Counted from the first letter of the stretch, positions 8,937 to 61,964 are shown. The stretch: 64,000 nt of DNA from an uncultured Chloroflexia bacterium (GCA_963833225.1 CAWHXD010000007.1:1-64000), one strand, 5' to 3'. The notes: a model not told the origin generated them from the letters alone. Numbers and translations: made by a program.

Positions 8937-10521
8937 GCGCTCGCGGACCAGTCGCAAGGCTCGGGCGGCTCGGCGAGGCGCATCGTGATCGGAAGGTCGT
9001 TGGTGGCGGGGCTATCCCTCTCGCCCCGACCATTTCGACCTCATGAGGTCCAAAAGCCTCGGCGAGGCCGTGGTCCAGCGCTTCCTGTGTGGGTTCGAGC
9101 TTCGCCACGCTGACCCCGAGCACGCGCATGCGCTCGAAGAGCGTCGTTGCGAGGGCCCGACGATCGTCGGGGTCCGCGTCGGCCCACCACGCCGGAAGGT
9201 TCTCGAGATAGCGGCGGACCTCGTCGGGTGGCAAGGTCGGCCGCTCCGAACCGCCCGCAGCCTCGGCCTCCGCGGCGTCGAGCTCGCGCATCGTCTGCTC
9301 GAGGGCCAGGGGATCGCGATCGCGCCGGTACGTCGCAACCGCTCGCTCGCGCTCCTCCTCGATCCGGGCCAGGCGCAGCTGGTTGGGCTCTGTCCCAGCC
9401 CCTCGGCGATACGCACCCGCAGCGGCCTCGACGTCGCGCGCGCCCAGGCGGACCCGCTCCAATACGAACGGCACCATCGCCTCGTACTCGTCGCGCCCGT
9501 AGCTCTGGCCCGGGATCCGGGTGTGGCGCCCGCGGACCGAGCCGCCCGCTGGTCGGGCAGCCATGAACGCTGTACACGCGTCGAGGTGGCGGTAGCGGTC
9601 CTTGTCGCCCACGAGCCGGCGGCCGCAGGCGGCGCACGCGAGCATCGGCAGGGCATAGGTCCGGCGCGTCTCGGGCCGGCCCGGCGAGCGGCGGTTGCGG
9701 GCGGCCCGCAGGTCCGCCACGCGGCGCCAGGTTTCCTCGTCGACGACCGGGTCCCAGTTCGCCGCCGATCCGTCGCGCAGCCGGCCCCGGTACAGGGGCG
9801 AGGTGAGGATGCCCCGGATCGTGTGGAGGCCGATCCCGAGCCGGCCCGCCACCTCGCGGTCGGTCAGCCCGGCGGCGGCCAGCGCGTAGGCGCGGACGGC
9901 CGTGGCGATGCGCTCGGGATCGATCTCGACGACCCTGGCGTCGCCTGCCCGACGGAAGCCGAAGGGCGGATGGCCGCCCGGGTCGCCCCGCGTCTCGCGC
10001 TTGGCGGCGTAGCCCGCCCGCACGTTGCGGCTCTGCTCGCGCGAGTTGATCTCGGCCGCCTTGGCCTTGTCGACCAGGCGCTCCCAGTCCGCGGCGTTGG
10101 AGGAGAGGATCCGGTCGTCGCAGATGTAGACGACGACACCCTGGCGGTGGAACCAGCGCCGGTACGAGAGCGCGAGGGCGAGATCGCGCATGTAGCGCGC
10201 GGTGTAGCCGACGAGGAGGACATCGAACGCGCCCGCCTCGGCCGCGGCGAGCATGGCCCGGAACTCGGGCGTCCGCGTTGCCGGCGGATCATCCATCGAG
10301 TCGGGGCCCGACCAGCCCGACCGCCCGACCGTCCAGGCGAGCCCGGTGTCGGCGAGCCCGAGCGCCGTGATCGCGGTGTCCTGCATCCGGCGCTGCGACG
10401 GCGGTCCCCATCGATCGAGCTGGCCCGGCGTGCTCTCGCGGATCCAGCGCGCCGCCCGGAGGCCGCGCAACTCCGAGGCATCGCGCGCGAGGCGCAGGTC
10501 GGCGGCGCGGAGCGCGCTCAC
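8887..10521 (-). CDS. Large serine recombinase (the only apparently full-length copy)
   Basis: ARWIREST catalytic Ser; LLVGYTARYMRD; GGHPPFGF recombinase domain; CAACG zinc ribbon. GTG start overlaps the upstream stop; the ORF reads through the core at 9017. Confidence 0.9.
   Translation of the reverse strand: MSALRAADLRLARDASELRGLRAARWIRESTPGQLDRWGPPSQRRMQDTAITALGLADTGLAWTVGRSGWSGPDSMDDPPATRTPEFRAMLAAAEAGAFDVLLVGYTARYMRDLALALSYRRWFHRQGVVVYICDDRILSSNAADWERLVDKAKAAEINSREQSRNVRAGYAAKRETRGDPGGHPPFGFRRAGDARVVEIDPERIATAVRAYALAAAGLTDREVAGRLGIGLHTIRGILTSPLYRGRLRDGSAANWDPVVDEETWRRVADLRAARNRRSPGRPETRRTYALPMLACAACGRRLVGDKDRYRHLDACTAFMAARPAGGSVRGRHTRIPGQSYGRDEYEAMVPFVLERVRLGARDVEAAAGAYRRGAGTEPNQLRLARIEEERERAVATYRRDRDPLALEQTMRELDAAEAEAAGGSERPTLPPDEVRRYLENLPAWWADADPDDRRALATTLFERMRVLGVSVAKLEPTQEALDHGLAEAFGPHEVEMVGARGIAPPPTTFRSRCASPSRPSLATGPRAHDATVVPPPRRARDRA
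9017..9032 (+). repeat. att core 1 (tRNA-Pro 3' end)
   Basis: Exact CCTCTCGCCCCGACCA; left arm type C. Confidence 0.9.
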
Positions 10522-10820
10522 CGGGCCGAGGTGCCGGTGCGGCGGCGGACGCGGCGACGGGTGCGGGTGCGGGCCGGGGCTTGGGGGTCTGGCATCGGTC
10601 GTACGGTCATTCGGGTAGGTCGGCGGACGCGCATCGTACCCTGTCGTGACCCAGCCTTCGCGCGCCGCTCGGCGATGTGGCGGAGCCCCTCGGCGAGGAC
10701 GAAGACGAGCCGGCAGGTTCCGGGATCGTCGCCGTGCAGCGACCCCTCGAGGGGCCGTGTCTCGGGCGCCGAGGCCGCGCCGGCCTGCCGACGCCGGACG
10801 GTGCCGTGTCGCACCGTCAC
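10518..10820 (-). CDS. Small hypothetical protein between Replic_Relax and LSR
   Basis: GTGA overlaps at both ends. Confidence 0.45.
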   Translation of the reverse strand: MTVRHGTVRRRQAGAASAPETRPLEGSLHGDDPGTCRLVFVLAEGLRHIAERRAKAGSRQGTMRVRRPTRMTVRPMPDPQAPARTRTRRRVRRRTGTSAR

Positions 10821-11752
10821 GCGAGCGCCTCGTCATGGAGTTCGAGTCCACCCTCACCGAGGAGGCGGAGCCACGCGTCGGATCCGACCGGGGTCGGGCA
10901 ACGCCTCGGCTGCGGGTCGGTCAGGAGACCCCGCAGGACCGATCGCTTGGGATCGGCCGTGAGCCCGCGGATCGGCGCGTCGTAGCCGTTGGCCCAAAGA
11001 TCGGGCAGCAGGGTGACCCAGGCCTTGCCCGAGAGCCCGGGACGCCCGAGCCGGCGCCCGATGGCCGCGAGGCGCGCCGCCCGCTCGGGCGAGCCCGTTA
11101 CGAACAGGACGCACCAGGTCCTCGACCACAATGCCTTCTCGTAGCGCGCGAGCTTGTCCTCGATGACCGGGCCATGCTCGGTCGCCTCGTCGATCTCGAG
11201 GCACAGGATGGTCGAGCCGGTCGGTCCGGCCACGGCGAGGATCCCGTCGGGATAGACGCCGCGGAGGGTGTCGTGGCACATCGACTCGGTGAGCCAGGCG
11301 GTCATGACGGGACCGGTGTCGGGCTCGCCGTGCTGCGCCGCGAGCAGGGCGCAGACGGTCTCGACCCCGTTGAGGCTGTGGCGGAGCTGGGTCCCTGCCC
11401 GGCCGCGGGTGAGCGGGCCGTAGTGGAGGCGGCGACGGCCGCGGGGACTGATCCGGAAGGCGAACGGGGCACCGCCGCGGGTGACCGGGGGCAGGACGGC
11501 CCGTTCGAGGTAGCCCGCCCGGTAGAGGCGGGCGAGGCGTTCCTGCGCCGTCTGGCGGCGGTGGTAGACGAGGGCGGTCAGCTGGGTGGTCGTGGCGACA
11601 TCGGCGCGATACAGGATGCGCAGGGCTGCGCGGTCACGGTAGGTCAGCAGACCCGGGTCCACGATGGCCCGGGCGGGAGGCGCCGGCGCGGCAGCGAAGG
11701 CACCGATCATGGGTGTGTGGGGTCCCGGGTCGCGGCCGTCGCGATCGAGCAC
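10817..11752 (-). CDS. Replication-relaxation (Replic_Relax) family protein
   Basis: N-terminal wHTH, QLRHSL, YPDG..LCLEIDEATE..IEDKLARY. Confidence 0.8.
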   Translation of the reverse strand: MLDRDGRDPGPHTPMIGAFAAAPAPPARAIVDPGLLTYRDRAALRILYRADVATTTQLTALVYHRRQTAQERLARLYRAGYLERAVLPPVTRGGAPFAFRISPRGRRRLHYGPLTRGRAGTQLRHSLNGVETVCALLAAQHGEPDTGPVMTAWLTESMCHDTLRGVYPDGILAVAGPTGSTILCLEIDEATEHGPVIEDKLARYEKALWSRTWCVLFVTGSPERAARLAAIGRRLGRPGLSGKAWVTLLPDLWANGYDAPIRGLTADPKRSVLRGLLTDPQPRRCPTPVGSDAWLRLLGEGGLELHDEALA

Positions 11753-12349
11753 GAAACCCCGTGCACCGAAGGCGTGCCCGGAACGCGGGCCGCTGCCCCC
11801 ATCCCTGCCAGACGGGCGGCGTCGGAGCGACCGGTATTGCTGGCGTTGACTGTGCGGACCACGGTGATCATGGCGTGGGCGACCTCATAGAAGGACTGTG
11901 CGTACCTCGATTTCGACGAAGCTGGCCGCGTTCCAAGGTCCGGCGATCGGGTTGACCCCGCAGGTGCTCGCGCATGGGAGCTCCGACGGGGTCGACACCG
12001 GGTCCGCCTGACCAGCCGCAGCGCAGGCGTCAGGCCGCTCGTCACGCGGGACCGTCTCCGGCCGCCGGGGCGTGACCCCTGGCGCGGTCGCGATGGGTGG
12101 CGACTCGACGGGACGAGGTGCGCCACCGGGACGGGTACCCGCGGACGACCGACGCGACGTCAGCCGCCGAGCTCCAACCGTACGCCGCTGTCCGGCTCGG
12201 CTCAAGGGGGGCTTGTGTACCGGCGTGCGTCACGAGGTTCCACCTGCGGAGCTGTCAGCCGGTACTGAGGAGCGGCACGGATCTGGACCTCGCCGCCCGC
12301 AGCGCCGCCGATCGATCGGGTCCTGCTCGCTGGCGGCCAGTCGGGTGGT

Positions 12350-12608
12350 CCCGCGTGATCGCTGGGACGCTTTCCTCGCGCAGCGCGGCGACGCGTTCCG
12401 CGCGGCCACCGGCGCCGAGATGAGCCTCGAGGCGGCCATCCACCAGTACGGCGGCTTCCGCTACCGCGAGCACTGGGACGTCGGCGATGTCGTCACCGTG
12501 CGCAACGCGGAGCGAGCCATCAGCTAGGCCGCCCGTGTCGTCGAGGCCAAGGAGCCACAGGTCGCCCGGCTTGACGTACGGCTCGTCGGACGGCTCGGGC
12601 AAGGTCAC
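12350..12608. pseudogene. Phage gene scraps: tail-protein-like C-terminus (+) and ParB-MTase piece (-)
   Basis: YREHWDVGDVVTV on +; LPEPSDEPYVKPGDLWLLG on -, homologous to the gene at 1-569. Confidence 0.5.
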
Positions 12609-15259: not shown

Positions 15260-15347
15260 CGTAGGGGTCGGAAACCCCGATTCGCGCTCAGATCAGCCCG
15301 GTACGATCGGCTGATGTGGTTCCTCGTCTACCTGCTCACCCGCACCC
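15260..15347 (+). repeat. Left end of an integrase-core IS; inverted partner at 16503-16597
   Basis: GGGGTCGGAAACCCCGATTCGCGCTCAGATCAGCCCGGTACGATCGGCTGA is mirrored at about 16543-16593. Confidence 0.8.
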
Positions 15348-16502
15348 TGAAGGGTTCAACAATCAGGATCACGCTGCCCGGCGGTACTCGTGGATCAGCC
15401 CGCCGAGCACGTCTCTTCGTTCGACCAGGGTTGGGGTGGCACCCGTAACCTGGGCTGGTCGGATGCCGGCCGGCACGGCAAGACCCAGGCCCCGGTGCGG
15501 TCTCTCGTCGACGTAGTGCGTCGACGTACGCCCCGAGCACGTGCTCGAGATGGCGAGGGCCGTAGACCAGGACGTGGTCGAGGCACTCCCGGCGCACGGT
15601 CCGCACAAACCGCTCCGCGAAGGCGTTCGCCCGAGGTGCCCGGACCGGGGTTCGGATGACGCGGACGCCCTCGGCGCGGAGCACCGCATCGAACGGTCCC
15701 GTGAACTTGGTGTCCCGGTCGCGCACGAGGAACCGCACATCCGACAGCCGCTCCTCGATGGCGAGGTTCCGCGCCTGCTGGGTGACCCAGGCCGAGTCAG
15801 GGTGTGCGGTCACGCCGGCCAGGTGCACCCGTCGCGTGGAGAGCTCGATGAAGAACAAGGCGTAGAGGGTCCTGAGACCGATCGTCTCGACGGTGAAGAA
15901 GTCGGTCGCCCAGATCCCCGCTGCCTGTGACCGCAGGAACTCGGCCCACGTCGGGCCACCCCGGCGTGGAGCAGGGTTCATGCCGTTGCGCAGGAGGATC
16001 GTCCGGACCGTCGTCGCAGAGATCCTGATCCCGAGCTTGCGGAGCTCCCCGCGGATCCGCTGGTATCCCCAGCGCGGGTTCTCCCGGCCGAGTCGGACGA
16101 CGAGGTCCCGGACATCGGGCCCGATCGGCGGGCGTCCGGGGTGCCCTGTCCGCCGATACGTCCACTTCCTCCGGGCGAGTTCCCGGTGCCAGCGCAGCAG
16201 GGTCTCCGGCCGCACGATGAACGACGACCAGCTGCCTCTCGGCAACCCGGTGCTCGCGGCCGCGAGCAGGACCCGGTCGAGACGGTTGAGCCTGGGACGC
16301 TTGACCTGCCGCTGGAGCACCTTCACCTGGTGGCGGAGCACGAGGAGCTCGATGTCCCTCGCAGCGTGTTGGCGACCTCCGGCTCCGAGGAGACGGCGGA
16401 CCAGGAAGTAGAGGAGCGAGAACAGCATGGAGCTCCTTCGGCCGTGGGAAACCGCATGCTACAGGTGCAGTTGACACCAGAATCGGGAAACTGAACCCTT
16501 CA
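15348..16502 (-). mobile_element. IS with rve integrase-core transposase (IS3/IS481-like), copy 1, frameshifted near the 3' end
   Basis: TIR TGAAGGGTTCA/TGAACCCTTCA; DFF, RDRD and NAFAER motifs; one extra base near 15519 relative to copy 2. Confidence 0.85.
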
Positions 16503-16851
16503 GGGCGACAAGGGTGCGGATGAGCAGGTAGACGAGCGACACTCAGCCGATCGTACCGGGCTGATCTGAGCGCGAATCGGGGTTTCCGACCCCCACGGGG
16601 CCACATGCCGCTGCGGAGCGATCACTGCCAACGTCGCTCTGCTGGCGCTGGACGAGCTCGACGCCTGACGCGCACGCGTCTACGGTGAGGCCGTCGCAGG
16701 GACCGAGCGTGAGCACGATGGCTTCCCAAACTGCACGGTATGACAGCCACGAGCATCGAGGCTTAGGGTGTTTTCTGGAGAGCGACCCAACCGCGAGTAG
16801 GCGGCAAGGGTAGTAATAGGTGGAATGGTGGGCCTTCCCAATCTTCACGCG

Positions 16852-19027: not shown

Positions 19028-19657
19028 CGTCAAGCGGCCCCACCGTGATCACGAGTTTTGGCCCCACCCCCGACCGATTGGTGGGTCTCTGACGGGCTGC
19101 TGATCAGGCGGCTGGCGACCCCTCCTTCCGCTTGCCCTGGCTCGTCCGAAGCCGGTACGACGAGGTTCCGGTCTCGAGGATGTGGGCCCGGAAGGTGAGC
19201 CGGTCGACGACCGCGGCAGCGAGCCGTGGGTCGGTGAATGTCTGGCCCCACTCGCTGAAGGGGGCGTTGCTGGCGACGGCGATGCTGGCCCGCTCGTCGC
19301 GTTCGGTGAGCACCTGGAACAGGAGCTCGGCACCCCGCCGGTCAAGGTGCAGGTACCCCAGCTCATCGAGGCAGAGGAGGTCGATGCGGCCGTACCTCCC
19401 GATCACCTTGGACAGCTCGCGCTCGTCCTCGGCCTCGACGAGCTCGTTGACGAGAGCGGCCGCCGTCACGTAGCGGACCCGCAGGCCCGCCTCGCAGGCG
19501 GCGATCCCGAGCCCGATGAGCAGGTGCGTCTTGCCGGTCCCCGAGTCGCCCAGGAGCACGACCGGTTCGCCGGCGCTGATCCAGGCACCCTGGGCGAGGG
19601 TCGCCAGGGCAGCCGGTTCGATCGAGGGCGTGGCGCCGAGGTCGAACTCCGACAGCC
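19028..19657 (-). mobile_element. istB: IS21 right end with 5'-truncated istB (CDS 19104-19657)
   Basis: GDSGTGKTHL Walker A, LLCLDELGY Walker B, AVVDRL, SSYR; terminal GGCCCCAC repeats. Confidence 0.85.
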
Positions 19658-26370: not shown

Positions 26371-28671
26371 ATGGCCAGGCCCATACGCCGCCCGGGCAAC
26401 CTGCCGGCTGAGGCGACGAGCTTCATCGGCCGCCGCCGTGAGCTTGCTGAACTCAGGAAGAAGCTCGCCACAGCGCGCCTGGTCAGCCTCGTCGGCCCGG
26501 GCGGTGTCGGCAAGACCCGACTCGCGATCCGGATCGGGACCGGTCTCACACGCAGCTTCCGGGACGGCGCATGGCTGGTGGAGCTCGCCGAGGTTCGGGA
26601 TCCCGCGCTGATCTGCAACGCCATGCTGGCGGCCCTGGACCTGCGCGACCAGACGGCGACCGAGCCGCGGGCCCTCCTGCTCTCGTACCTGCGCGACAGG
26701 GAGCTTCTGCTCGTGGTGGACAACTGCGAGCACCTGCTGGGGGCGGCCGCGGTGCTCGTAGCCGATGTCCTCACGGCTGCGCCCGGCGTGCGGGTGATCG
26801 CCACCAGCCGCGAGCCGCTGTCGATCCCGGGTGAGCACGTGCTGCCGATCCCACCACTCGAGCTGCCTCGAGCCCAGGCCGACGAGTCCCTCGATCAGCT
26901 CCGCCAGAACGAGTCGGTCGAGCTCTTTGTCGAGCGGGCTGCAGCCGCATCGGGCAGCTTCGAGCTGACCGCATCCAACCGGGCGGCGGTCGTGGAGCTG
27001 TGCCGCCGGCTCGACGGGCTGCCGCTCGCAATCGAGCTCGCGGCGGTCAGGACGCGGGTCCTCTCCGTGGAGCAGATCCTCGATCGCCTGGCCGACCGGT
27101 TCGGCCTGCTCACGGGAGGAAGTCGCGCAGCCCTGCCGCGTCACCAGACGCTGCGAACCACGATCGAGTGGAGCCACGACCTGTTGGGGTCGGGCGAGCG
27201 GACGCTCCTGCGGCGGCTGTGCGTGTTTGCGGGCAGGTTCACGCTGGAGGACGTCGAGTCGGTGTGTACGTCCGACGACGTGCCGGCAGCCCGCGCCCTG
27301 GACCTGCTGTCATCACTGCTCGACAAGTCGCTGGTGATGAAGCAAGACGTACCGGGTCCCGCATGCTATCGACTGCACGAGACGATGCGCGAGTTCGCCG
27401 CCCTCAGGCTGAGGGAGGCGGACGAGGAGAAGGTCGTCGAGCTGCGGTGCGCCGAGTACTACGCCTCGAGGTGCCGGCCACCTGCAGTCGGAGCTCGGTA
27501 CGGGCTGGTCGAGTGGCTCGAATGGACCGACGTGGAGATCGACAACATCCGGTCGGTCCTTCGGAGATGCCTCGTTCACGGCGGTATCTCGCGCGGAATG
27601 GACCTCGCCGCATCCCTCCAGCTGTATTGGGCCACGCGGGCGACGACTGAAGGCGTGCGGTGGCTGGACGAGCTCCTCGCGACCGGCGGCGGTGATCCAG
27701 AGCCCCGGGCTCGGGCCTGGTACCTGCGTGGGTTCATGGCCGTGTTGCTGGTCGATCCGACCGCTGCCACACCGGCGCTCGAGCGAGCGGCGGCGGCCGA
27801 TCGAGAGGCCGGTCGTCTCCCACCGCTGGCGTCAGCGCTGTCCCTGGCCTCGATCGCTGCCAATATGGCCGGGGATCGAACTTCCGCCAGGCGATTGCTC
27901 GGTGAGGCCAAGGCCGTGACAGCGGGCGTTGATGACGTCACGGCTGCGCTCACGTTGCTGCTGGCTCGATCGTTCCATGGCTTCTTCGAGGGCGACCTCG
28001 AGGCCGCGAGCTCCGCGTCCTCGGAGGGCGTGCGTCTCAGTCGAGAGGTGGGAGACCTCTACACGCTCAAGGTCTGGCTGCTGAACCTGGGCACGGTCGC
28101 CTTGATCGCCGGTGACTTGGCCAAAGCGAAGCCCCTGCTGACCGAGGCTATGCGAATCGCCCACCAGATCGACGACCGGGTGCAGCTGGCGTACCTGCTC
28201 GACGCATTGGGCTGCCATGCTGCCGGATCCGGGCAGGCACGGCTCGCCGCGCAGCTGTTCGGAGCCGCGGATACCGTCCGCAGGGGGGCCGGCGCCAGCA
28301 TCATGCCATTCCTCGGTCCACCGATGGCACGCGCCGAAGCGTCGGCGATCGCCGCGCTTGGCGCATCCAGGTTCGAGGCCGAATGCAAGGCCGGAGGCCG
28401 CTTGAGCCGGGACGCCGCGGTGCGGCTCGCACTCGGTGAACCCGGCCATGTTGCCGCTGCGGCATCGACCAGTGCGGGCGCGGGGTTGCTCGCGAAGCGA
28501 GAGGCGGAGGTCGCACGGCTGGTCGCTGACGGCCTGAGCAACAAGGAGATCGGAGCACGCCTGTTCATCTCCGAGCACACCGTCGACAGCCACGTCCGCA
28601 GCATCCTGAACAAGCTCGGATGCAACTCACGTGCCCAGATCGCCGCCTGGATGGCGTCGCCGAGCGAGTAG
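26371..28671 (+). CDS. NB-ARC-type ATPase/TPR/LuxR transcriptional regulator
   Basis: GPGGVGKT, LLVVDNCEH, LDGLPLAIELAA; C-terminal GLSNKEIGARLFISEHTV. Confidence 0.9.
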   Translation: MARPIRRPGNLPAEATSFIGRRRELAELRKKLATARLVSLVGPGGVGKTRLAIRIGTGLTRSFRDGAWLVELAEVRDPALICNAMLAALDLRDQTATEPRALLLSYLRDRELLLVVDNCEHLLGAAAVLVADVLTAAPGVRVIATSREPLSIPGEHVLPIPPLELPRAQADESLDQLRQNESVELFVERAAAASGSFELTASNRAAVVELCRRLDGLPLAIELAAVRTRVLSVEQILDRLADRFGLLTGGSRAALPRHQTLRTTIEWSHDLLGSGERTLLRRLCVFAGRFTLEDVESVCTSDDVPAARALDLLSSLLDKSLVMKQDVPGPACYRLHETMREFAALRLREADEEKVVELRCAEYYASRCRPPAVGARYGLVEWLEWTDVEIDNIRSVLRRCLVHGGISRGMDLAASLQLYWATRATTEGVRWLDELLATGGGDPEPRARAWYLRGFMAVLLVDPTAATPALERAAAADREAGRLPPLASALSLASIAANMAGDRTSARRLLGEAKAVTAGVDDVTAALTLLLARSFHGFFEGDLEAASSASSEGVRLSREVGDLYTLKVWLLNLGTVALIAGDLAKAKPLLTEAMRIAHQIDDRVQLAYLLDALGCHAAGSGQARLAAQLFGAADTVRRGAGASIMPFLGPPMARAEASAIAALGASRFEAECKAGGRLSRDAAVRLALGEPGHVAAAASTSAGAGLLAKREAEVARLVADGLSNKEIGARLFISEHTVDSHVRSILNKLGCNSRAQIAAWMASPSE

Positions 28672-28833
28672 GGACGCCGAAGGCGAAGTCCACGAAACGG
28701 GCCGTGGGCGGGTGGGCCCGAGCATCGTGAACAGGAAGTTACCGCCGGCAAGGACTCCGCTGCCGGTCGACTAGTCACCCGATCACGAATCCCATCGATG
28801 GCGGCTCCCGTGTGCCCCCCTAGGCTGGCGAGC

Positions 28834-34020: not shown

Positions 34021-34035
34021 CGTGTCGCCCTGACA
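34021..34035 (+). repeat. att core 7 (degenerate)
   Basis: CGTGTCGCCCTGACA after a long arm-B match to about 22705-22764. Confidence 0.65.
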
Positions 34036-34067
34036 GATTGCGGATCTGAGTATGCGCCGCTGGCTGT

Positions 34068-35610
34068 TCACGGATGGCTCGCCGTGACCTCAAAGAGTTG
34101 CCATTCGCCCGGCACCCCGCGCAGTGCATGTTGTCCCGCGTCCTGCATTGGCACATCGGGAAGTGCGGAGGCCAGGTCTGCGGAGACGAGGATGTCCCCC
34201 GCCCCGGCTGTTCCCATCACCCGCGCGGCCGCGTGGACAGCCAGCCCGCTCACCTGTTCGCCACGCATCTCCACGTCGCCCAGGTGCAGGCCCGTTCGGA
34301 CGCGAAGACCGAGCCTCCCCACGCTTCCACGCATCGCCACCGCGCAGCGGATCGCGTTGCCCGGTCGATCGAAGACGGCGAAGAAGGCGTCGCCGGCCGT
34401 ATTGACCTCGCGGCCACGATACCGCGCCAGCTCCTGGCGCACCGCTGCCCTGTAGGCGTCAAGGACCTCCCGCCAGCGCTCGTCGCCCAGCGTGACGATC
34501 GCCTGGGTGGATTCCACGATGTCGGTGAACAGGAGGGTCAACCGGCTGCGCGCGGGCAGTGCTCGGTCGACGATCGGCCGCAGTCGATGACGCACCGGGG
34601 CGAAGGCGAGCCCGGCGGCCAAGCCCACTGCGGCCGCCATCAGATTGGAGCCCGACCGAACCTTGCCTGCAGTACGTTTTGCGCCACCACGTTTGCCGCG
34701 CCGAACACCACGAGCAGCACCAGGCTGACGGCCCCGTAGAGGGCAGTCCGGTTCAGGAACAGGTCAAGGTCGTAGAGTCGATAGCGAAGCATTGCGACCG
34801 CGAAACCGAGTGGCATGGCGATCCCGAAGCCGGCAACCGTGGTGACCGTCACCAACACGTTGACCTGGTCGAGTGGGACGATCAGCAGCGCGCCGACGTT
34901 GAGGCCAACGTTCAGGAACACCGCGAATGCCGTCGACCATGCGATCCAGCGCAGCTGCAACGCCTCCTCGCCCTGCGACCGCCTCAGCCGGAGCACGATG
35001 GCCACGCCGGCAGCCGCCACGATGCCCAGACCGGCCAGGTACAGGACGATGCCAAGCGGCGAGAGCGCCAGGCCCTCGAGCTCCGGCACGCCGGTCGGGT
35101 TGGGGGCGCCGGGCAGGGTACGGAGCTCGAGCCCGCGCGGGTCCAGCACCGTTGCGATCACCAGGAGCACGGTGACGGCCACCGCCGACCGCGCCACCCA
35201 CCGCCAGCGGCGCGACAGCAGCCGGCCATTCGGAACAAGCAGGAGGACGATCGGCGCCAGCCCAGCGGGGTACACCAGCGTGAGGGCAACGCTGCCGAAC
35301 CACGGGATCCATGACGTGAAGGGTGCCTGCGGGTTGGTATCGAGGGCGTAGCGCGTGAACTGCGTGGCTGCGCCGTTCAAACCCATGACCAGCGCCATCG
35401 CCAGGAAGATCCAGCTGTGGCGTTCCCGGTCTGGCGCGACGCGACCAGGGCGCCGAGGATGCCGAAGCTGACGGGCAGCACGATCTCGGCCGCGCTTGTC
35501 TGATCGAGCGTCTGGATCGACGCGCGATTGACGAACGCGAGCAGGGCGGTGCCGGCCGCGGCCAGCAGCGTAGCGACGCAGATCGACCACGCGAGGAGAC
35601 GGGCGCTCAC
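34068..35610 (-). pseudogene. Membrane-bound class III adenylate/guanylate cyclase, two frameshifts
   Basis: Multi-TM N-terminus; LFTDIVEST, NTAGDAF, GLHLGDVE, AVHAAARVM. Confidence 0.85.
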
Positions 35611-35830
35611 ACGGGGATGCTAACGGACGCGCTCCGCGCAGAGGAACCCGAAGATGACTGGTTCTGGCTGGTCTTCAGGGCGCCACATTCCGCGAGCATG
35701 TGAGCCGGCACGACGGGTACGAGGCGTCTGGGGCCGCAGCCGGCGTGTGCTAGGCAAACCGCTCGACGCGACCGCCGCCTGAGCCACCGCCCACGATCCT
35801 GATGGTCAGTTGGGAATTGCCGCAATGACT

Positions 35831-35846
35831 CCTCTCGCCCAGACCA
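35831..35846 (+). repeat. att core 8
   Basis: One mismatch (CCTCTCGCCCAGACCA). Confidence 0.8.
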
Positions 35847-45922: not shown

Positions 45923-46349
45923 TCAGGCGATGGAGCGGTCGCGTAGCCACCGTGCCGAACCAGTCAGAGCGATGCTCAACGGCAAGGAGACCGGGACATT
46001 AAGGTCGGTCGTGGAGGCCTGTCTCCTCTCGCCCCGACCAGATCGACCTTCCTTCACGCGGACGACGCCGGCCCCGAAGGCCGCGTCCCATCCCCGGGCT
46101 TTCGGTTGGGCGGTCAGCGTGAATGTGTAGTCGGTCACTCCCGGGACGTCGATCCGCTCGAACGCGGCCTCGGCGATCGCGTGGCGGCCGGCGTCCGAGG
46201 TCTTCGCCAACAGCGCCGGCAGCGACTCCAGGTAGGCGCGTACCTCGGCGGCCGTTGGGATGCGTGACGGTCGGACCACCGCCGCTGCGGCCTCGGCGTC
46301 GAGCCGCACCATCGTCGCCTCGAACCGACCCAGGTCGCGATCCTTCGCG
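45923..46349 (-). pseudogene. LSR 3' stub
   Basis: 46025-46349 is identical by eye to 25427-25751. Confidence 0.85.
46025..46040 (+). repeat. att core 13
   Basis: Exact; arm A. Confidence 0.9.
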
Positions 46350-46450
46350 TGTGCGTGGTCACGCCGGCCACGTGCACGCGCCGCGAGTTCGACGAAGATC
46401 AGGATATCGGGCGTGGTGTTAGACTAGTCGCAGACCAGATGGAGAGGCGA

Positions 46451-46690
46451 ATGCGACGGATCGGTGCGTATGAGGCGAAGACCCACCTTCCCCGGCTGCT
46501 GGACGAGGTAGCCGGCGGGCAGGCGATCACGATCACGAAGCACGGTGTCGCGGTCGCGGTGCTGGGACCTGTGTCGGCGTCCCCGACCCGGACGCCGCAC
46601 GAGGCGATCGCGGGCCTGCGGGCCTTCCGCGCCGCCCACCCCCTCGGCGGGCTGTCGATTCGGGAGCTCATCGATGAGGGCCGGCGTTGA
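46451..46690 (+). CDS. Phd family antitoxin
   Basis: IGAYEAKTHLPRLLDEV..ITITKHG. Confidence 0.9.
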   Translation: MRRIGAYEAKTHLPRLLDEVAGGQAITITKHGVAVAVLGPVSASPTRTPHEAIAGLRAFRAAHPLGGLSIRELIDEGRR

Positions 46691-47097
46691 TGTTCGTCGT
46701 GGACGCCTCCGTTGCGCTCGCCTGGTGCCTGGCCGACGAGTCATCCGAGCTCGCTGGGCGGGCCCTTGATCGGCTTGAACAGGACGAGGCGCTGGCCCCG
46801 GCGATCTGGCCGCTCGAGGTCGCGAACGGGCTGCGCACCGCGGAGCGGCGTGGACGGCTCGATCTCGCCGACATGGCGCACGTCCGCGAGTTGCTGGTGT
46901 CGCTTCCCATCGAGGTCGAGAGCGTCCCGCTGGACGTGGCGCTGGGCGAGGTGACCGAGCTCGCCCGCCAGCTCGATCTGACCGCCTACGACGCGGCCTA
47001 TCTCGCACTGGCGGCGCGACATGGGGTTGCCCTGGCCACGGTCGATGCGCGGCTCAGGCGCGCCTGCGAACGAGCCGGCGTCGAACTCGTAGGCTGA
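46687..47097 (+). CDS. vapC: VapC PIN toxin
   Basis: VVDASVALAW, LTAYDAAYLALA, LATVD. Confidence 0.9.
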   Translation: MMFVVDASVALAWCLADESSELAGRALDRLEQDEALAPAIWPLEVANGLRTAERRGRLDLADMAHVRELLVSLPIEVESVPLDVALGEVTELARQLDLTAYDAAYLALAARHGVALATVDARLRRACERAGVELVG

Positions 47098-47141
47098 GCG
47101 GGTCGGCCGTTCGCTGAGTCATCGAAATCGTCGTCGCGATT

Positions 47142-47157
47142 CCTCTCGCCCCGACCA
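47142..47157 (+). repeat. att core 14
   Basis: Exact; arm B; right arm homologous to cores 5 and 11. Confidence 0.9.
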
Positions 47158-49879: not shown

Positions 49880-50396
49880 ACTGGTGCTCCGGTTCCTGGT
49901 CATCGGCGCCGTCGCCTTCGGAGGTGGCCAGGCGGCGCTGCCCCTGGTGGAGCGGCTGGCTGTTGGCGAGATGGGCTGGCTCAGCCCGTCTCGCTTCGCG
50001 GTCGGTGTCGGGCTCGCCTATGCGACCCCGGGACCGGTGCTCATCCTCGCCGCGTACGTCGGCTATGCCGTTGCGGGGATCGCCGGAGCGCTGGCGGCCA
50101 CCGTCGCGGTCTTCGCCGTCCCGGTGGCGCTGGCAGCGAGCGCCGCGGCAGTCGTCACGCGGCTCGAAGCATCGCCACGCTTCCGTCGGTTCGCGGCGGG
50201 CGCATCGGCCGGGGCTGTCGGGCTTCTCGGGGTCACCCTCCTGGCGTTGGCCCGACCCGTCGGCGTCGTCTCCCCGGTCCTACTGCTGATCTCAGCGATC
50301 GTCTTCCTCGCGGCCCGACGAGTCTCGCCCGTCGCACTGCTGGCCGTGGCCGTCGTGGCCGGCGGCCTCATTGGAGCCGCCACGGGAACGCCTTGA
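49869..50396 (+). CDS. chrA: Short-chain chromate transporter subunit
   Basis: AVAFGGG, ATPGP..AAYVGY. Confidence 0.85.
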   Translation: MLLELVLRFLVIGAVAFGGGQAALPLVERLAVGEMGWLSPSRFAVGVGLAYATPGPVLILAAYVGYAVAGIAGALAATVAVFAVPVALAASAAAVVTRLEASPRFRRFAAGASAGAVGLLGVTLLALARPVGVVSPVLLLISAIVFLAARRVSPVALLAVAVVAGGLIGAATGTP

Positions 50397-52930: not shown

Positions 52931-53176
52931 TCAATCGTCCGAGTACTCCCCGCGCTCGGGCTCGGGCAGCCGCGGCGCGAGAATCCACACCTGCTGCGCC
53001 GTCGTCGTCACCCCCACCTTGGACCGGGCGTTCGCCAGGTGGTGCTTGACGGTCGAGTGCGAGATGCCGAGCCGGGCGGCGGCCGCCTTCTCGGATCCGG
53101 CAACGAGGACCGCGGCGACCACGACGACCTCGCGGTCCGTGGCGCGCTCGGCGGGGCGGGACGGCCGTCTGGTCAT
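52931..53176 (-). CDS. Small HTH protein, family 1
   Basis: Paralogue of 8688-8936 with the same ATGA coupling to the arm-C tail. Confidence 0.8.
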   Translation of the reverse strand: MTRRPSRPAERATDREVVVVAAVLVAGSEKAAAARLGISHSTVKHHLANARSKVGVTTTAQQVWILAPRLPEPERGEYSDD

Positions 53177-53256
53177 GCGCTCTGGAGCCATTCGGAATGC
53201 TCAGGAGGCTCGGCGAGACGCATGGTGATCGGAAGGTCGTTGGCGGCGGGCCTATG

Positions 53257-53272
53257 CCTCTCGCCCTGACCA
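53257..53272 (+). repeat. att core 15
   Basis: One mismatch; arm C. Confidence 0.85.
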
Positions 53273-53518: not shown

Positions 53519-53534
53519 CCCCTCGCCCCGACGT
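53519..53534 (+). repeat. att core 16 (degenerate)
   Basis: GGCTATG-CCCCTCGCCCCGACGT. Confidence 0.5.
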
Positions 53535-54301: not shown

Positions 54302-54317
54302 CCTCTCGCCCCGACCA
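54302..54317 (+). repeat. att core 17
   Basis: Exact; arm A. Confidence 0.9.
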
Positions 54318-54421: not shown

Positions 54422-54670
54422 ATGACAGCAAGAGTCAAGCATCGTCGACGCGGCTATACCCGGGTCAGCGCGAAGCACCAGGTGACGCTCCCGGTGGAGG
54501 CCCTGCAGCGGGCTGGCATCCGGACGGGTGACACCCTGCGTGCCGAGGTTCGAGGCCCGGGAGAGGTCCTCCTGGTCCGGGACGTCGATCCCGTGACCCA
54601 GTTCGCCGGCGTGCTGACCGGTGTCTACACGCCCGCCGAGCTCGACAACCTGCGCGACGAGTGGGACTGA
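54422..54670 (+). CDS. AbrB/MazE antitoxin
   Basis: TRVSAKHQVTLP..GIRTGD. Confidence 0.85.
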   Translation: MTARVKHRRRGYTRVSAKHQVTLPVEALQRAGIRTGDTLRAEVRGPGEVLLVRDVDPVTQFAGVLTGVYTPAELDNLRDEWD

Positions 54671-55074
54671 CCGTCCTCGACGCGGGCGTCGTGATCGCGG
54701 TCCTCGATGCCGGCGACACGCACCACGCGGTCGCCGCGATGGCGCTGACGGACGCGCGCGATCGGGGCGACGAGCTCGTCATCCCGGTGTCCGCCTACGC
54801 CGAGTGCCTCGTCTCGCCCAGTCGGACTGGGCAAGCGGCCGTCGTCACGGTGGACCGGTTCCTCGACGGCCTTCCCGCGCGTGTCGAGCCTGCGACCCGC
54901 GTCATCGGCGCCGCCGCGGCCGCCCTTCGGGGCGCGCATGGACCTTCTCTGCGCCTGCCGGACGCCCTGGTCGTCGCCACGGCCATCGTGCTCGACGCAA
55001 ATCGCATCATCACGACGGACGCGCGCTGGCCGGCACTCGCCGTCAGTGTCGAGGTGCTCAGCAAGGACGGCTAG
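54661..55074 (+). CDS. vapC: PIN toxin
   Basis: VLDAGVVIA, LRLPDALVVATA, ITTD. Confidence 0.85.
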   Translation: MGLTVLDAGVVIAVLDAGDTHHAVAAMALTDARDRGDELVIPVSAYAECLVSPSRTGQAAVVTVDRFLDGLPARVEPATRVIGAAAAALRGAHGPSLRLPDALVVATAIVLDANRIITTDARWPALAVSVEVLSKDG

Positions 55075-56806: not shown

Positions 56807-56919
56807 GGCTCTGCGCGGGCCGCCTCCACGTCGACCGGATGCGGACACGATCGTGCGGAACGCTGTCGACGACCCCGCCGGATTGGGCGGTTCTCCAAGC
56901 CCACTGAGCGCCCACAGGC

Positions 56920-58748
56920 CTAGGTGGCCGGTGTGAAACGCGCGTTCTGACGGGCTGACGGACAGGCTCGGGCGCAGCGACGATTCTCCCTGGCAGGAGC
57001 TGCCGGGCTGATCGCAGGAGCACACCGATGTCGCAGGGATCCGCACCCCGCCAGGCCGACCTGTTCCGCGACACCGCGAGCTTCGTCGGGCCGCTGGTCC
57101 GATCCGACTCGATCCATGCCCTGCTCGCCCGAGAGTGCCACGCGCTGTTCCCTGACGAGCTGTTCAGCGACCTGTTCGCGGCGGGCGTCGGCCGGCGCTC
57201 GGTGCCGCCCCTGGTCGTCGCGGTCGTGATGGTCCTCCAGCGCCTCGAGGGCCTGTCCGACCGCGAGGCCGTCGAGCGGTACACCTTCGACGCGCGCTGG
57301 AAGTACGCCGCCGGCGGCCAGCCCTTCGATGCCCCGGGCTTCGCCCACACGGTGCTCGTCGACATGCGGGCGAGGCTCGCCCGCTCGGAGCGGCCCAACC
57401 GGATCTTCGAGCGCACGCTCGAGGTCGCGAAGGGTGCGGGGCTCCTCGGGGTGCGCCGGGTGCTCGACTCCACGCCCCTGTACGACGCGGTCGCGACCAT
57501 GGACACGGTCACCCTGGTCCGCTCGGCGATCCGGGGCGTGCTCGCGGCATCAGGCGAGCGCGAGCCCGGCCTGCGCACCGTCCTCCGGCGCGACGACGAC
57601 TACCGCCAGGGCGGCAAGCCCGCCGCGGACTGGGATGACGCCACCGCCCGGGCGGCCCTGGTCGACGCCCTCGCCCGCGACGGGGAGGCCGTGCTCGCCG
57701 GGCTCGAGGGCGAGCCGCTCGAGGCTCCGCTTGCCGAGGCCGCGGTCCTGCTCGCCACGGTGCTCGGCCAGGACCTCGAGCCGGGTCCGGACGGCCGGGT
57801 GCGGATCGCCCGGCGGGTCGCCCCCGACCGGGTGATCAGCACGGTCGATCCCGACACCCGCCACGGCCACAAGACGCAGGCCCGCGGGTTCGACGGGTAC
57901 AAGGGCCACGTCGCGATCGACCCCGACCATGAGCTCGTCACCGCGACCGCGGTCACCCCGGGCAACGCCGGCGACGCGTCGATCGCCCTTGCGCTGCTCG
58001 CGGACGACCTGGCGGACGCCGCACCCGCCACCCCGCCCGTCGTGTACGGCGACGCGGCGTACGGGACGGGCCCGCTGCTCGCGGCCCTCGGGCAGCACGG
58101 TGCCGTCAGCCGCCTCAAGGTCCAGTCGCCGGCCGGCATCGGGGGCCACTTCACCAAGGACGACTTCACGATCGACCTCGCCGCCGGCACGATCACCTGC
58201 CCGGCGGGCCGGACCGCGCCGCTGATCCGTCATGCCCCAGGCTTCGAGGCCCGGTTCCGGTCCGCCTGCGCCACCTGCCCGCTGGTCAGCCGGTGCACGA
58301 CCTCGGCTCGCGGTCGCTCGATCGCTGTCGGCCCGCACGAGGCGCTTCTCACTGCCGGCCGCGCCGACACGCGCGACCCCGCCTGGCTCGCCGACTACCG
58401 GGCAACGCGGCCGAAGGTCGAGCGCAAGCTCGCCCATCTCGTCCGCCGACGACACGGCGGGCGGCGGGCTCGTGTCCGCGGCAGGCTGAAGGTTGGCGCC
58501 GACTTCGCCCTCCTCGCCGCCGCGGTCAACCTCGCACGCCTCGCGGTCCTCCGGGTGACGGGATCTGGCGGGACCTGGGCGGTCCGGCCAGCCTGACGGA
58601 GGGCCAAGGCCCGCCTCGGGGAGCAGCCGGAGCACGCTCGGGGGACGGTTGCCGCATGATCCGGGCGCCAATCACCTGATCACATCCACAGACCACACGC
58701 GGGGTCCCGTCAGCCCGTCAGAACGCGCGTTTCACACCGGCCACCTAG
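56920..58748 (+). mobile_element. IS1182 family element (transposase 57028-58596)
   Basis: About 40-bp perfect TIR bounded by CTAG; LSDREA, LDST, GYKGH, YGDAAYG, RPKVER. Confidence 0.9.
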
Positions 58749-58749
58749 G

Positions 58750-58890
58750 GGCGGCCGGATCGGCTCCAGGCCCGGCACCACCAGCCACCCCTCCGCCCGC
58801 CCCTGGTAGATCAGCTGCTCGGTCATGAGGCCCGACCGAGCCCGCAGGTCGGCCAGGCGGCGCCTCACTGTGCTGGGCCGGATGCCCACA
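58750..58890 (-). pseudogene. Small HTH family 2 remnant
   Basis: GIRPSTVRRRLADLRARSGLMTEQLIY. Confidence 0.7.
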
Positions 58891-60220: not shown

Positions 60221-60236
60221 CCTCTCCCCCCGACCA
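60221..60236 (+). repeat. att core 18
   Basis: One mismatch; arm B. Confidence 0.85.
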
Positions 60237-61482: not shown

Positions 61483-61874
61483 TGGCCACGCCACGGTTCG
61501 ACGAACTGATCCATGCCCGGACCCGGTTGTCGATCGTCTCACTCCTTGGCGCCTCGGACTGGGCGGAGTTCAGGTTTCTCCGCGAGTCCCTCGGTCTGTC
61601 CGACTCGGTGCTGTCGAAGCAGCTGACGCTGCTCGAGAACGCCGGCTACGTGAAGATCCGAAAGGCGTTCGTCGGCAAGCGACCCCGCACGTCGGTGAAG
61701 CTCAGCCCGACCGGGCGCCTCGCGTTCGAAGGCCACGTCCTCAAGCTCCAGGAGATCGCCCTGCAGGGTGGGACTTCGCTCGCCCGCGACGACAGATCGA
61801 CGATCGCGGACGATCCTCAAAGGCCCCCGGATCATGCAACAGCGTCGTCGCCCAGGGCGGACGCCAAGGCCTAG
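61482..61874 (+). CDS. Winged-helix (HTH_34-like) regulator
   Basis: FDELIHARTRLSI..SDSVLSKQL..LENAGYV. Confidence 0.85.
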   Translation: MATPRFDELIHARTRLSIVSLLGASDWAEFRFLRESLGLSDSVLSKQLTLLENAGYVKIRKAFVGKRPRTSVKLSPTGRLAFEGHVLKLQEIALQGGTSLARDDRSTIADDPQRPPDHATASSPRADAKA

Positions 61875-61948
61875 CGTTTGAAGGCCGCCGCCATCTGGCA
61901 CCACACCTGCAGGCAACTTCCCGCGGTGCGGGAAGTGTCGGTGCGACT

Positions 61949-61964
61949 CCTCTCGCCCCGACCA
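61949..61964 (+). repeat. att core 19
   Basis: Exact. Confidence 0.9.

Follow-up and report, generated by a model that had tools for sequence, protein, structure and literature searches.

A probable tandem accretion array at the 3′ end of tRNA-Pro(CGG) in a soil Chloroflexota genome

What gathers 19 copies of one short sequence, all in the same orientation, into a single stretch of a bacterial chromosome? The 64-kb window considered here, i.e., the whole stretch of DNA that was analysed, begins at the start of contig C7 of a soil Chloroflexota genome (G000), a metagenome bin of 20 contigs that is 86% complete. The 16-nt core CCTCTCGCCCCGACCA occurs there in 13 exact and 3 one-mismatch copies (35831, 53257 and 60221), all on the + strand, and a search of the window's − strand returned 0 exact or one-mismatch copies. 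By chance, 0.26 such matches would be expected, and the maximum in 100 shuffles was 3. The asymmetry between + and − strands holds at up to two (16 versus 0) and up to three mismatches (19 versus 1); at up to four (28 versus 13) noise dominates. Three more degenerate cores (24025, 34021 and 53519) are backed by their flanks and bring the total to 19 sites, spaced from 157 bp to 13.7 kb. A reading of the sequence alone had placed 19 + strand sites here, and the core search, flanks and spacings agree with it. The cores, with the genes that help to locate them, are as follows.

1–9016: first unit, truncated at the contig start, with a class C arm at its end; SHOCT, HNH endonuclease, amidase/LysM (endolysin-like), ECF sigma and HTH genes
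8688–8957, − strand: small GerE/LuxR-type HTH gene in the class-C right end; second copy at 52931–53191
9017–9032, + strand: att core 1; class C left arm, right arm C′ (LSR body)
21455–22700 (end approximate), + strand: AAA_14/DUF4143 ATPase, PADLOC defence candidate PDC-S01 (E 1.4e-163); second, diverged copy at 44267–45667
22765–22780, + strand: att core; class B left arm, right arm a ~80-bp LSR 3′ relic
24025–24040, + strand: degenerate core, 1-base deletion; class A left arm
25427–25442, + strand: att core; class A left arm, A′ right arm
31137–31152, + strand: att core; hairpin-type right arm without LSR relic
33401–33416, + strand: att core; class A left arm, Phd-YoeB/ParE pair (32738–33321) just upstream
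34021–34036, + strand: degenerate core, 5 mismatches; class B left arm
35831–35846, + strand: att core, one mismatch
35988–36003, + strand: att core; class A left arm
38844–38859, + strand: att core; class A left arm
42524–42539, + strand: att core; class B left arm, RHH-PIN pair (41847–42488) just upstream
44086–44101, + strand: att core; class A left arm, Fic gene starting at 42805 upstream
46025–46040, + strand: att core; class A left arm, A′ right arm
46349–47097, + strand: Phd-PIN toxin-antitoxin pair, cargo of the 1.1-kb unit 46041–47141
47142–47157, + strand: att core; class B left arm
53257–53272, + strand: att core, one mismatch; class C left arm
53519–53534, + strand: degenerate core, 3 mismatches; class-C-like left arm
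54302–54317, + strand: att core; class A left arm, followed by a MazE-PIN pair (54422–55074)
60221–60236, + strand: att core, one mismatch; class B left arm
61949–61964, + strand: last core that can be recognised; no synteny with relatives to its right

The arms recur along the window. A class B arm at 47118–47161 is 97.7% identical to 22741–22784, and this class is found again in another genus; the region of the degenerate core at 34021 (33964–34038) matches 22708–22783 at 83% identity, and the class C region 52948–53272 matches 8705–9032 at 83.5%. Between the cores at 35831 and 35988 lie 141 bp, an empty unit that consists of two arms only. Elsewhere the cargo comprises toxin-antitoxin (TA) pairs in many units, defence candidates, transporters, regulators and IS copies, with ORFs on both strands and at least 6 IS or transposase genes in the window. 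The core at 9017 lies in an imperfect inverted repeat of attP-like form, whose centre is the first two core bases (CC), and across 54 exact-core sites dyad symmetry is greatest between core positions 1 and 2 (11.5 of 28 pairs, against 4.6–10.6 and typically about 7 at other positions).

The core is the 3′ end (T-stem 3′ strand, acceptor stem and CCA) of tRNA-Pro(CGG), as the sequence-only reading had supposed: the sole tRNA-Pro(CGG) gene of the genome (C6:370221–370297), 4.5 kb from the end of contig C6, ends in it. This gene is also the 14th of the 14 exact cores found genome-wide, the other 13 all being in the window; a single one-mismatch match on contig C8 sits within unrelated sequence. 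After the tRNA, C6 carries a 93%-identical copy of window positions 9017–12427, including a second recombinase copy frameshifted about 35 codons before the core, and then terminates in an IS copy. The sequence at the start of C7 is present on C14 too. C6 is a putative neighbour of the array contig, which would place its intact + strand tRNA-Pro to the left of the array, as the sequence-only reading predicted. The first unit is possibly the right part of a class-C element that starts after the tRNA on C6, and the GerE/LuxR-type gene at 8688–8957 is a candidate regulator or directionality factor.

Which enzyme recognises the core? The candidates in the window belong to one family of large serine recombinases (LSRs).

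8887–10521, − strand: intact-looking LSR, 544 aa, with the motif ARWIRESTPGQ and a CxxC...H...C zinc-ribbon pattern
10817–11752, − strand: Replic_Relax / nicking-type replication initiator
25337–26413, − strand: LSR remnant, about residues 184–504 of the family; identity to the intact LSR about 40%
35805–37326, − strand: LSR remnant, nearly full length, frameshifted, without N-terminus
44023–44286: short LSR relic across and to the right of core 44086
45926–46438: LSR relic forming the A′ right arm of core 46025

The intact gene has an N-terminal serine-recombinase catalytic domain (Resolvase, PF00239, E 1.7e-7) with the catalytic serine motif, and its ORF runs across the core at 9017, which encodes MVGARG. 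It has at least 301 homologues, the best 120 of which are mostly 450–575 aa long. R28, E29, S30, Q34, C296 and C299 never vary across 43 sequences of the family, H312 and C316 hardly vary, and conservation stops at R501 and G502, both encoded by the core. In the PDB, the family profile hits the catalytic domains of LSRs (3g13, 3.8e-12; TP901-1, 1.5e-6; PhiC31, 1.8e-4). A profile search of the intact LSR gave no significant PF07508 or zinc-ribbon match; PF07508 appears in the precomputed annotation of some relatives and weakly (E 0.0053) in one remnant of the window. There is no second Resolvase-domain gene beside the LSR, which together with Replic_Relax makes up a 3.4-kb module; the copy beside the tRNA on C6 shares 93% identity with it.

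The family is tied to the core well beyond this genome. Seventeen genome loci hold an LSR relative; 16 of them have a reverse-complement core at the LSR 3′ end, and in 8 of the 17 this core is part of an intact tRNA-Pro(CGG). A core stands at that end in 16 of 28 viral contigs as well. The one viral contig inspected is a phage with terminase, portal and head genes, in which the LSR and attP are internal; the family is also carried by a small replicon-like element. Judged from these sequences, the LSR appears to be a member of a divergent, new group of serine integrases on phages and plasmid-like elements. Within the window, an intact LSR is present in just one of the 18 complete inter-core units, and LSR 3′ remnants enter the cores at 25427, 35988, 44086 and 46025, with the ~80-bp relic at 22765. 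Both observations match what had been read from the sequence, namely one intact LSR, several 3′ remnants meeting cores, and a majority of units without a functional recombinase. An LSR-derived right arm is undetectable at 12 of the 19 junctions, a proportion that simple decay of LSR-bearing elements explains poorly.

A sample of 201 genomes from the order has exact cores in 172, and as many as 22 in a single genome. We chose from this set five contiguous genomes of the same genus. All five arrays open with an intact tRNA-Pro(CGG) as their first core and continue with 4–10 further cores, none of them on the reverse strand. Between the arrays, 37 homology blocks of at least 300 bp give 74 segments and 148 endpoints. 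No fewer than 40 of these endpoints fall within 20 bp of a core (2.1 expected; maximum 8 in 2000 placements), and no segment spans a core by 100 bp on each side (0 of 74 versus 11.9 expected). Unit order differs between genomes, and the expectation that relatives would have gained, lost and reordered units at the cores is borne out. Some units are 90–97% identical between species whose rpoB regions are 83–88% identical, the rpoB baseline covering G114 and G107. The Phd-PIN unit (46041–47141) is common to G114 (95.7%; rpoB region 87% identical to G000) and G107 (90.0%; 83%), and the top unit identity with G200 is 96.6%. From these alignments, core-bounded units are the modules gained, lost and exchanged between species. 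Rearrangement is not limited to cores, since homologous units can have unlike junction-proximal arms: the first ~110 bp of the PIN unit differ between G000 and G200, as does the left arm of the Phd-PIN unit in G107.

The core repeats, the tRNA anchor, the linkage of LSR and core and the breaks at cores together lead us to read the region as a tandem accretion array of modular units at the attB of this LSR family, the 3′ end of tRNA-Pro(CGG), with a probability of about 0.8. Temperate phages and small replicon-like elements of Limnocylindrales-type Chloroflexota would bring an LSR that overlaps the attP core by its last codons. The strands would be exchanged within the 16 bp of the core; the dyad symmetry suggests the initial CC dinucleotide as the most likely position. 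The incoming element would supply an identical copy of the other 14 core bases, so the tRNA would remain intact, and only the non-conserved LSR tail past the core would be swapped. Repeated integration would pile elements up to the right of the tRNA, each internal junction consisting of the right arm of one unit, a core and the left arm of the next. Most units have lost their LSR or never carried one; LSRs may still move them, either together with an LSR-bearing neighbour or when a visiting phage provides the enzyme. Canonical LSRs recombine attP with attB only. Because no attB is left after the first integration and internal junctions are attP-like, stacking would need looser site rules.

Two of the relatives bear on how far the arrays depend on their own enzyme. 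G095 (one 4.15-Mb contig, 93% complete) has 10 cores at up to two mismatches and G200 (88% complete) has 6, and in neither assembly did we find an LSR by protein search or a PF00239 match. The proposal that such arrays are served by serine recombinases therefore stands for the tie between family and core, but not for a resident enzyme in general; present activity in G095 and G200 would need an incoming one.

Could the recombinase-less units be true cassettes, excised as circles by an LSR acting in trans and re-inserted at arm-core-arm sites, as in an integron? On that view the array would serve as a functioning store of genes instead of being a by-product of stacking. Units do behave as independent modules that break at cores and are shuffled in order, and the Phd-PIN unit, which G000 has between its ATPase and PIN units, is missing from that place in G200. 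Arm classes are well conserved beside unrelated cargo, as with the class B arm also seen in another genus, the 12 junctions free of LSR relics and the arms-only 141-bp unit fit such excision, and TA cargo is as plentiful as in chromosomal integrons. Ccr acting in trans excises SCC elements that lack ccr. Set against this, recombination between two attP-like sites is not performed by canonical LSRs, cargo on both strands means that there is no common promoter logic, and two arrays (G095 and G200) sit in genomes without any serine recombinase. The same patterns are explained if blocks move with an LSR-bearing neighbour and then suffer deletions, and we consider excision in trans rather unlikely.

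Truncated or frameshifted LSRs, degenerate cores, the IS and transposase genes, arrays without any LSR and homologous units with unlike arms would also be expected of a pure fossil record, in which past integrations decay by deletion and IS activity, nothing is mobile today, and like units across species reflect whole-element transfer followed by parallel decay. We give this little credence. The core-bounded Phd-PIN unit is shared by three species in its decayed 1.1-kb form at identities above those of rpoB, which points to movement of, or selection for, the decayed form itself. Whole-element transfer with independent decay would not predict the complete lack of core-spanning segments, and 13 of the 19 cores are exact with well-conserved arms. 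Finally, misassembly or chance matches in GC-rich DNA might be suspected in a fragmented bin whose window begins at a contig end, but 16 one-strand matches against 0.26, the same architecture in the single-contig relatives G095 and G123, and units of unique sequence, which repeats of 16–100 bp cannot collapse, leave that with a negligible chance.

Tandem accretion at the tRNA, our preferred reading, has several relatives among described systems. The sequence-only reading knew of no named system like this one, which does not hold, since ssrA islands, SCC/ECC, cis-mobilizable elements and tycheposons all come close. It also likened the array to a superintegron without IntI or attC, and the array fails on the integron's defining features (IntI, attC and cassette orientation). 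Superintegrons are long one-directional arrays of small, recombinase-less, TA-rich units with imperfect-palindrome sites between them. The array shares the single direction, the small, recombinase-less, TA-rich units and the imperfect-palindrome sites, but has no IntI, attI, Pc promoter or single-strand-folding attC, and serine recombinases recognise its repeats, which are copies of a tRNA 3′ end. We rejected an integron on the lack of any tyrosine recombinase (PF00589) match in six arrays (C6 and C7 of G000, and those of five relatives), on junctions that consist of a tRNA 3′ end and show dyad symmetry of the LSR type, and on the cargo lying on both strands.

Archaeal SSV-type integrases reportedly carry attP within the integrase gene (She et al., 2001). 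The array resembles these elements in having attP inside the recombinase ORF and in gathering at tRNA genes. The SSV tyrosine integrase gene is split and inactivated on integration, whereas the array LSR would exchange only its non-conserved tail past the core and so can stay intact. Cis-mobilizable elements and tandem accretion are said to have been described in the ICESt1/ICESt3 family (Pavlovic, 2004). Like these elements, which are flanked by att sites, lack recombination and transfer genes and are born of site-specific stacking and deletion, the window contains att-flanked units without recombination or transfer genes; ICESt1/ICESt3-type systems use tyrosine recombinases and stack two or three elements, the array about twenty.

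Prochlorococcus tycheposons, in the sections of the preprint that we cite (bioRxiv 10.1101/2020.12.28.424599), also integrate at tRNAs, push older elements deeper and leave partial tRNAs, fragmented integrases and cargo, but LSRs are a minority there: 910 of 937 elements have tyrosine recombinases, and genomes hold 1–2 elements on average. The arrays examined here contain LSRs as their only recombinases, and their repeats are much more closely spaced. SCCmec/ECC, as far as the cited part of PMC6222049 describes them, also integrate by means of an LSR into the 3′ end of a conserved gene and share direct repeats holding inverted repeats, multiple attR, composites, highly variable cargo and plentiful IS. 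Judged by the same partial description (PMC6222049), we did not assign the array to them: in place of the CcrA/CcrB pair (or ccrC) and the rlmH target it has one LSR, probably from a separate clade, and a tRNA as its target. Repeats are also far more numerous at each locus, and the carriers include phages.

The closest precedent is the ssrA islands (ssrA-GIs) of Dehalococcoides, and the array a variant on that similar known system. The relevant parts of McMurdie et al. (2011, PMC3146451) describe 15 islands without integration module, proposed to be cis-mobilizable via accretion, with all repeats within about 100 kb. Likeness to that description (PMC3146451) extends to the phylum, the tandem placement downstream of a small RNA gene, short direct repeats of that gene's 3′ end bounding each island, an insertion point in the T-arm region and a ~540-aa serine recombinase on the reverse strand beside attL, alike by description. 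In our data, a reverse-strand LSR stands beside the left repeat, and an intact RNA gene followed by same-strand repeats is present in 5 of 5 relatives; in G000 the tRNA is on C6 and the array on C7. The differences, within the same parts of PMC3146451, are the target and repeat (tmRNA and 20 bp there, tRNA-Pro(CGG) and 16 bp here), the second small serine recombinase DsiA, absent beside the array LSR, the RecF/ParB/Mom module, replaced here by Replic_Relax or phage genes, and the cargo, rdhA in the islands and 0.2–3 kb TA cassettes in many array units. Full membership was rejected, as the array has neither the six-gene module (DsiB, DsiA, RecF-like, ParB-like, Mom-like and others) nor the ssrA target, and set against the ssrA islands it holds 19 cores within the window alone.

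The 16-nt 3′-end motif of tRNA-Pro(CGG), CCTCTCGCCCCGACCA (hereafter the core, each copy being named by its start in the window), occurs in the window in 13 exact and 3 one-mismatch copies, all 16 on the + strand, against a chance expectation of 0.26 matches. The strand split is 16 (+) to 0 (−) at up to two mismatches and 19 to 1 at up to three. Three more degenerate sites are supported by their flanks, which carry left arms of recurrent sequence families: 24025 has one of class A, 34021 one of class B and 53519 one that is class-C-like. The core repeats listed in the sequence-only reading are thereby borne out. Core-to-core spacing ranges from 157 bp to 13.7 kb, and ARAGORN found no tRNA in the window. 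The best-supported interpretation is that this array is the product of tandem site-specific accretion at the attB site of large serine recombinases (LSRs) in tRNA-Pro(CGG), and that the stretches between two cores (units) are modules of gain, loss and interspecies exchange. A core-like sequence at 2285-2300 (+), with three mismatches and the T-arm-like GAGGTTCGA before it, may be an older relic within the first unit.

The window covers the opening 64 kb of contig C7. The source genome has 14 exact cores, 13 of them in the window and one on another contig, C6 (370282-370297), where it forms the 3′ end of the sole tRNA-Pro(CGG) of the genome, on the + strand and 4.5 kb short of the contig end. 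Directly after this tRNA follows a 3.4-kb copy of window 9017-12427, with the LSR and a Replic_Relax gene, at 93% identity, and the contig terminates inside a copy of an insertion sequence (IS). A tRNA-Pro had been predicted to the left of the array, and as far as the assembly allows it has been found; adjacency of the two contigs was looked for and could not be shown, and the join is unproven. In all five same-genus genomes that we picked from the sampled set for contiguous assembly, an intact tRNA-Pro(CGG) supplies the first core, and 4-10 further same-strand cores come after it, with no reversed ones. The sequence downstream of the tRNA is different in all five single-core genomes with an intact tRNA as the lone core (seven single-core genomes were fetched), and no syntenic equivalents of the genes at 62-76 kb were found close to the arrays of five relatives. 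For the hairpin-type right arms (31137, 42524, 47142), an origin as copies of the native tRNA trailer was considered and could not be confirmed.

Some repeats touch on the assembly. An rve-type IS is present in two copies at 15343-16505 and 19653-20814, 97% identical, in the same orientation and about 3 kb apart, with a Mutator-transposase fragment in between; a further copy at the end of C6 probably caused the contig break there. Window 1-600 has a 91%-identical copy on a third contig of the genome (C14:1891-2492), so that the contig start sits in a repeated element. ARAGORN also called a 93-nt tRNA-Pro(GGG) at C6:195034-195126, probably a false positive since the sequence resembles coding DNA.

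An intact LSR is contained in 1 of the 18 complete inter-core units of the window. LSR-derived right arms follow cores 9017, 22765, 25427, 33401, 35988, 44086 and 46025, and none was detected at the other 12 junctions. The recombinase and the genes classed as toxin–antitoxin (TA) or possible TA/defence are the following.

Recombinase, TA and possible TA/defence genes of the window
8887-10521, minus strand: LSR, 544 aa, Resolvase domain (E 1.7e-7), catalytic motif ARWIRESTPGQ
32738-33321: Phd-YoeB/ParE, TA pair
37532-38586: nucleotidyltransferase and small partner gene, possible TA/defence
41847-42488: RHH-PIN, TA pair
From 42805: Fic, possible TA/defence
46349-47097: Phd-PIN, TA pair
47313-47705: PIN gene, listed under TA
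54422-55074: MazE-PIN, TA pair
Two ATPases of PDC-S01 type (PADLOC): possible TA/defence

Apart from the PDC-S01 assignment of the two ATPases, PADLOC returned a short CARF-model match on the HTH end of a STAND protein and nothing else. Other cargo comprises this STAND-LuxR protein, a hydrolase, a cyclase-domain protein, a chromate transporter, an F420H2-dependent quinone reductase, PadR, an SRPBCC protein and a ZIP transporter; cargo genes lie on both strands. Unit 35847-35987 consists of two arms and no more. There are at least six transposase genes in the window; around one of them, an IS5-like DDE transposase gene (57028-58596), a perfect 43-bp inverted repeat (56919-56961 and 58707-58749) is probably the terminal-repeat pair of an intact IS.

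Homologous blocks shared with the arrays of relatives are each limited to a single unit. The Phd-PIN unit [46025..47142] is 95.7% identical to G114 [27552..28744] and 90.0% to G107 [65888..66890], the hydrolase unit 83% to G082, unit [34021..35831] 96.6% to G200 and the Fic unit 73% to G123; the rpoB-region baseline, which covers G114 (87%), G107 (83%) and G082 (88%), leaves out G200 and G123. Among the 37 inter-genome blocks of at least 300 bp (74 segments, 148 endpoints), 40 endpoints fall within 20 bp of a core, versus 2.1 expected and a maximum of 8 in 2000 random placements, and none of the segments crosses a core by 100 bp on both sides, versus 11.9 expected. Unit order differs as well: ATPase, Phd-PIN, PIN in the source genome; ATPase, PIN in G200; ATPase, Phd-PIN and an unrelated unit in G114. 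Two details count against a clean cassette picture, namely that the source genome and G200 differ over the initial ~110 bp of the PIN unit, and that the Phd-PIN unit has another left arm in G107.

The arms to the left of the core fall into several families. Class A left arms resemble the anticodon-to-T-loop part of the tRNA with a 6-nt insertion added, and class C arms are tRNA-like too; class B is not tRNA-like and, as we ourselves read the sequences, it mirrors, at 16 of 24 positions, the core together with the C′ right arm. Across seven genomes there are at least eight left-arm and at least eight right-arm families, with the 16 bp as their sole shared identity. In a set of 54 sites with an exact core, dyad symmetry is highest between the first and second core positions (11.5 of 28 complementary pairs, versus 4.6-10.6 and typically about 7 elsewhere). 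At site 9017 the pair AGGTCG/CGACCT lies at −23..−18 and +18..+23, and CGGGGC/GCCCCG at −10..−5 and +5..+10, while in the tRNA arm AGGTCG is 6 bp nearer to the centre. The LSR model that Rutherford and colleagues are said to have put forward in 2013 expects such a half-site spacing difference for attP versus attB, and on sequence grounds 9017 and the tRNA arm would fit these two roles. Strand exchange would take place at the CC of the core; restoring the tRNA on integration would then require the 14 bases to the right of the CC to be the same as in the tRNA. The minus strand repeatedly carries small HTH genes of 82-89 aa, GerE/LuxR-like, and fragments related to them (4598-4840, 8688-8957, 30806-31048, 52931-53191, 58762-58888), three of them just left of a core (8688-8957, 30799-31047, 52931-53191). 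If the DNA were circular or in tandem, their place would be directly downstream of the LSR gene, and their products may be considered candidate regulators or directionality factors.

The LSR has at least 301 homologues, and the best 120 listed are mostly 450-575 aa long; all those listed come from metagenomes or metagenome-assembled genomes, some also with PF07508. The single sequence gives weak matches (3g13 in the PDB, E 0.036; XisF in NCBIfam, 8.5e-6), and the family profile gives stronger ones to LSR catalytic domains in the PDB (3g13 3.8e-12, TP901-1 1.5e-6, PhiC31 1.8e-4). R28, E29, S30, Q34, C296 and C299 are invariant in a 43-sequence alignment, H312 and C316 nearly so, and conservation ends at R501 and G502, both encoded by the core. 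The 3′ end of the reading frame contains the core, translated there as MVGARG, and the tail beyond the core is unconserved; in the tRNA-adjacent copy on C6, which has a frameshift about 35 codons ahead of the core, the tail is encoded instead by the antisense strand of the tRNA. The reverse-complement core is found at the LSR 3′ end in 16 of 17 genome loci encoding relatives (Candidatus Limnocylindrales, Chloroflexia or Chloroflexi metagenome-assembled genomes, one labelled Actinomycetes), and in 8 of the 17 it is part of an intact tRNA-Pro(CGG).

Viral contigs encode relatives too. The exact core stands at the LSR 3′ end in 16 of 28 such contigs, these being relatives at 42-51% identity; the distant ones (32-37%) are without it, and one ends in tRNA-Arg(CCG). 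The one viral contig that we checked carries terminase, portal and head-morphogenesis proteins, with the LSR and an intact arm-core-arm site in mid-locus, and is therefore taken as a temperate phage. The window LSR adjoins a nicking-type replication initiator, so that the carriers include both phages and small replicon-like elements. LSRs of the distant branch end in or beside the 3′ terminus of a tRNA-Arg(CCG), or in look-alike sequences, and not in tRNA-Pro (viral contig L070 11433-11508; also L062, L063, L064, L066 and L067, just past the LSR end), and an N-terminal LSR fragment in the source genome (C14:12981-13515) is ~1 kb from tRNA-Arg(CCG). It may be that this clade specialises in the 3′ ends of tRNAs generally.

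Full-length LSR copies number two in the source array (one frameshifted), four in G107 (one frameshifted) and one in G114; the arrays of G082 and G123 hold LSR remnants. A resident LSR is not a general feature of these arrays, as G095, a single contig at 93% completeness, and G200, at 88%, have none in their arrays and no match genome-wide to the LSR protein or PF00239. Tyrosine recombinases can be dismissed as the agent, none being present within the six arrays examined.

Arrays of this kind occur in many species. The exact core was found in 172 of 201 sampled genomes of the order, and each of the 17 further genomes sampled from the genus has it; by hand count about 39 of 159 sampled family genomes, the source genome included, have at least five. 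The highest count is 22 per genome (G016 and G050, over several contigs), and in a sister family whose genomes are ~1 Mb, no more than three copies occur. One contig of a relative (G132:C7) has two clusters, at 15-50 kb (six cores, minus strand) and 860-886 kb (three cores, plus strand), so that a second locus or a second tRNA copy may be present in some genomes.

Canonical LSRs normally recombine strictly attP with attB, and internal attP-like junctions should be no substrate for them. The existence of the arrays in spite of this points either to relaxed site rules, as the Ccr recombinases have, or to blocks being moved along with an element that bears an LSR. A more far-reaching reading is that this LSR clade breaks the attP × attB rule, and that its arm-core-arm junctions recombine both among themselves and with the tRNA; the array would then be a serine-recombinase analogue of a chromosomal integron, from which single recombinase-less cassettes with TA pairs, defence genes or transporters are excised as circles, re-inserted in trans and circulated between species on phages. 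We regard this as rather unlikely. Among sequencing runs, the share of sampled words was never above 0.15, and each run was available only in the form of assembled contigs; a comparison of 31001-50000 with four runs gave short low-depth contigs of relatives, with joints of 21-37 matching letters on the shorter side.

Tandem accretion at tRNA-Pro(CGG) would make one tRNA gene the landing pad of a diversified phage and element LSR clade, grown into arrays in many species, and suggests that in Limnocylindrales-type Chloroflexota, known here from metagenome-assembled genomes only, this is a major route for gene flow. It also poses the mechanistic question of how LSRs build and reshuffle 20-unit arrays. 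The sites form a natural collection of attP variants, with one 16-bp core, one attB and cognate enzymes, useful for learning how LSRs recognise half-sites and for tool development.

The earlier interpretation is supported in part: tandem accretion at tRNA-Pro and an LSR family tied to the core stand, and the array fails the definition of an integron. In the literature searched, with many subscription papers outside its scope, there was no description of this system and none joining Limnocylindria with a recombinase. The closest precedent is the Dehalococcoides ssrA islands. These are tandem, bounded by a 20-bp repeated stretch from ssrA's 3′ end with insertion in the T-loop, and beside attL, on the reverse strand, they carry a CcrB-like serine recombinase of 540 aa; fifteen islands are without an integration module and are discussed by the authors as cis-mobilizable elements (PMC3146451). 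Other features are shared with SCC and ECC elements (PMC6222049) and with tycheposon islands (bioRxiv 10.1101/2020.12.28.424599). The present array differs from the known systems in its tRNA target, its single LSR with the core within the reading frame, its dense, small, TA-rich units and the phages among its carriers, and it takes the ssrA-island principle further, to a tRNA as target and phages as carriers.
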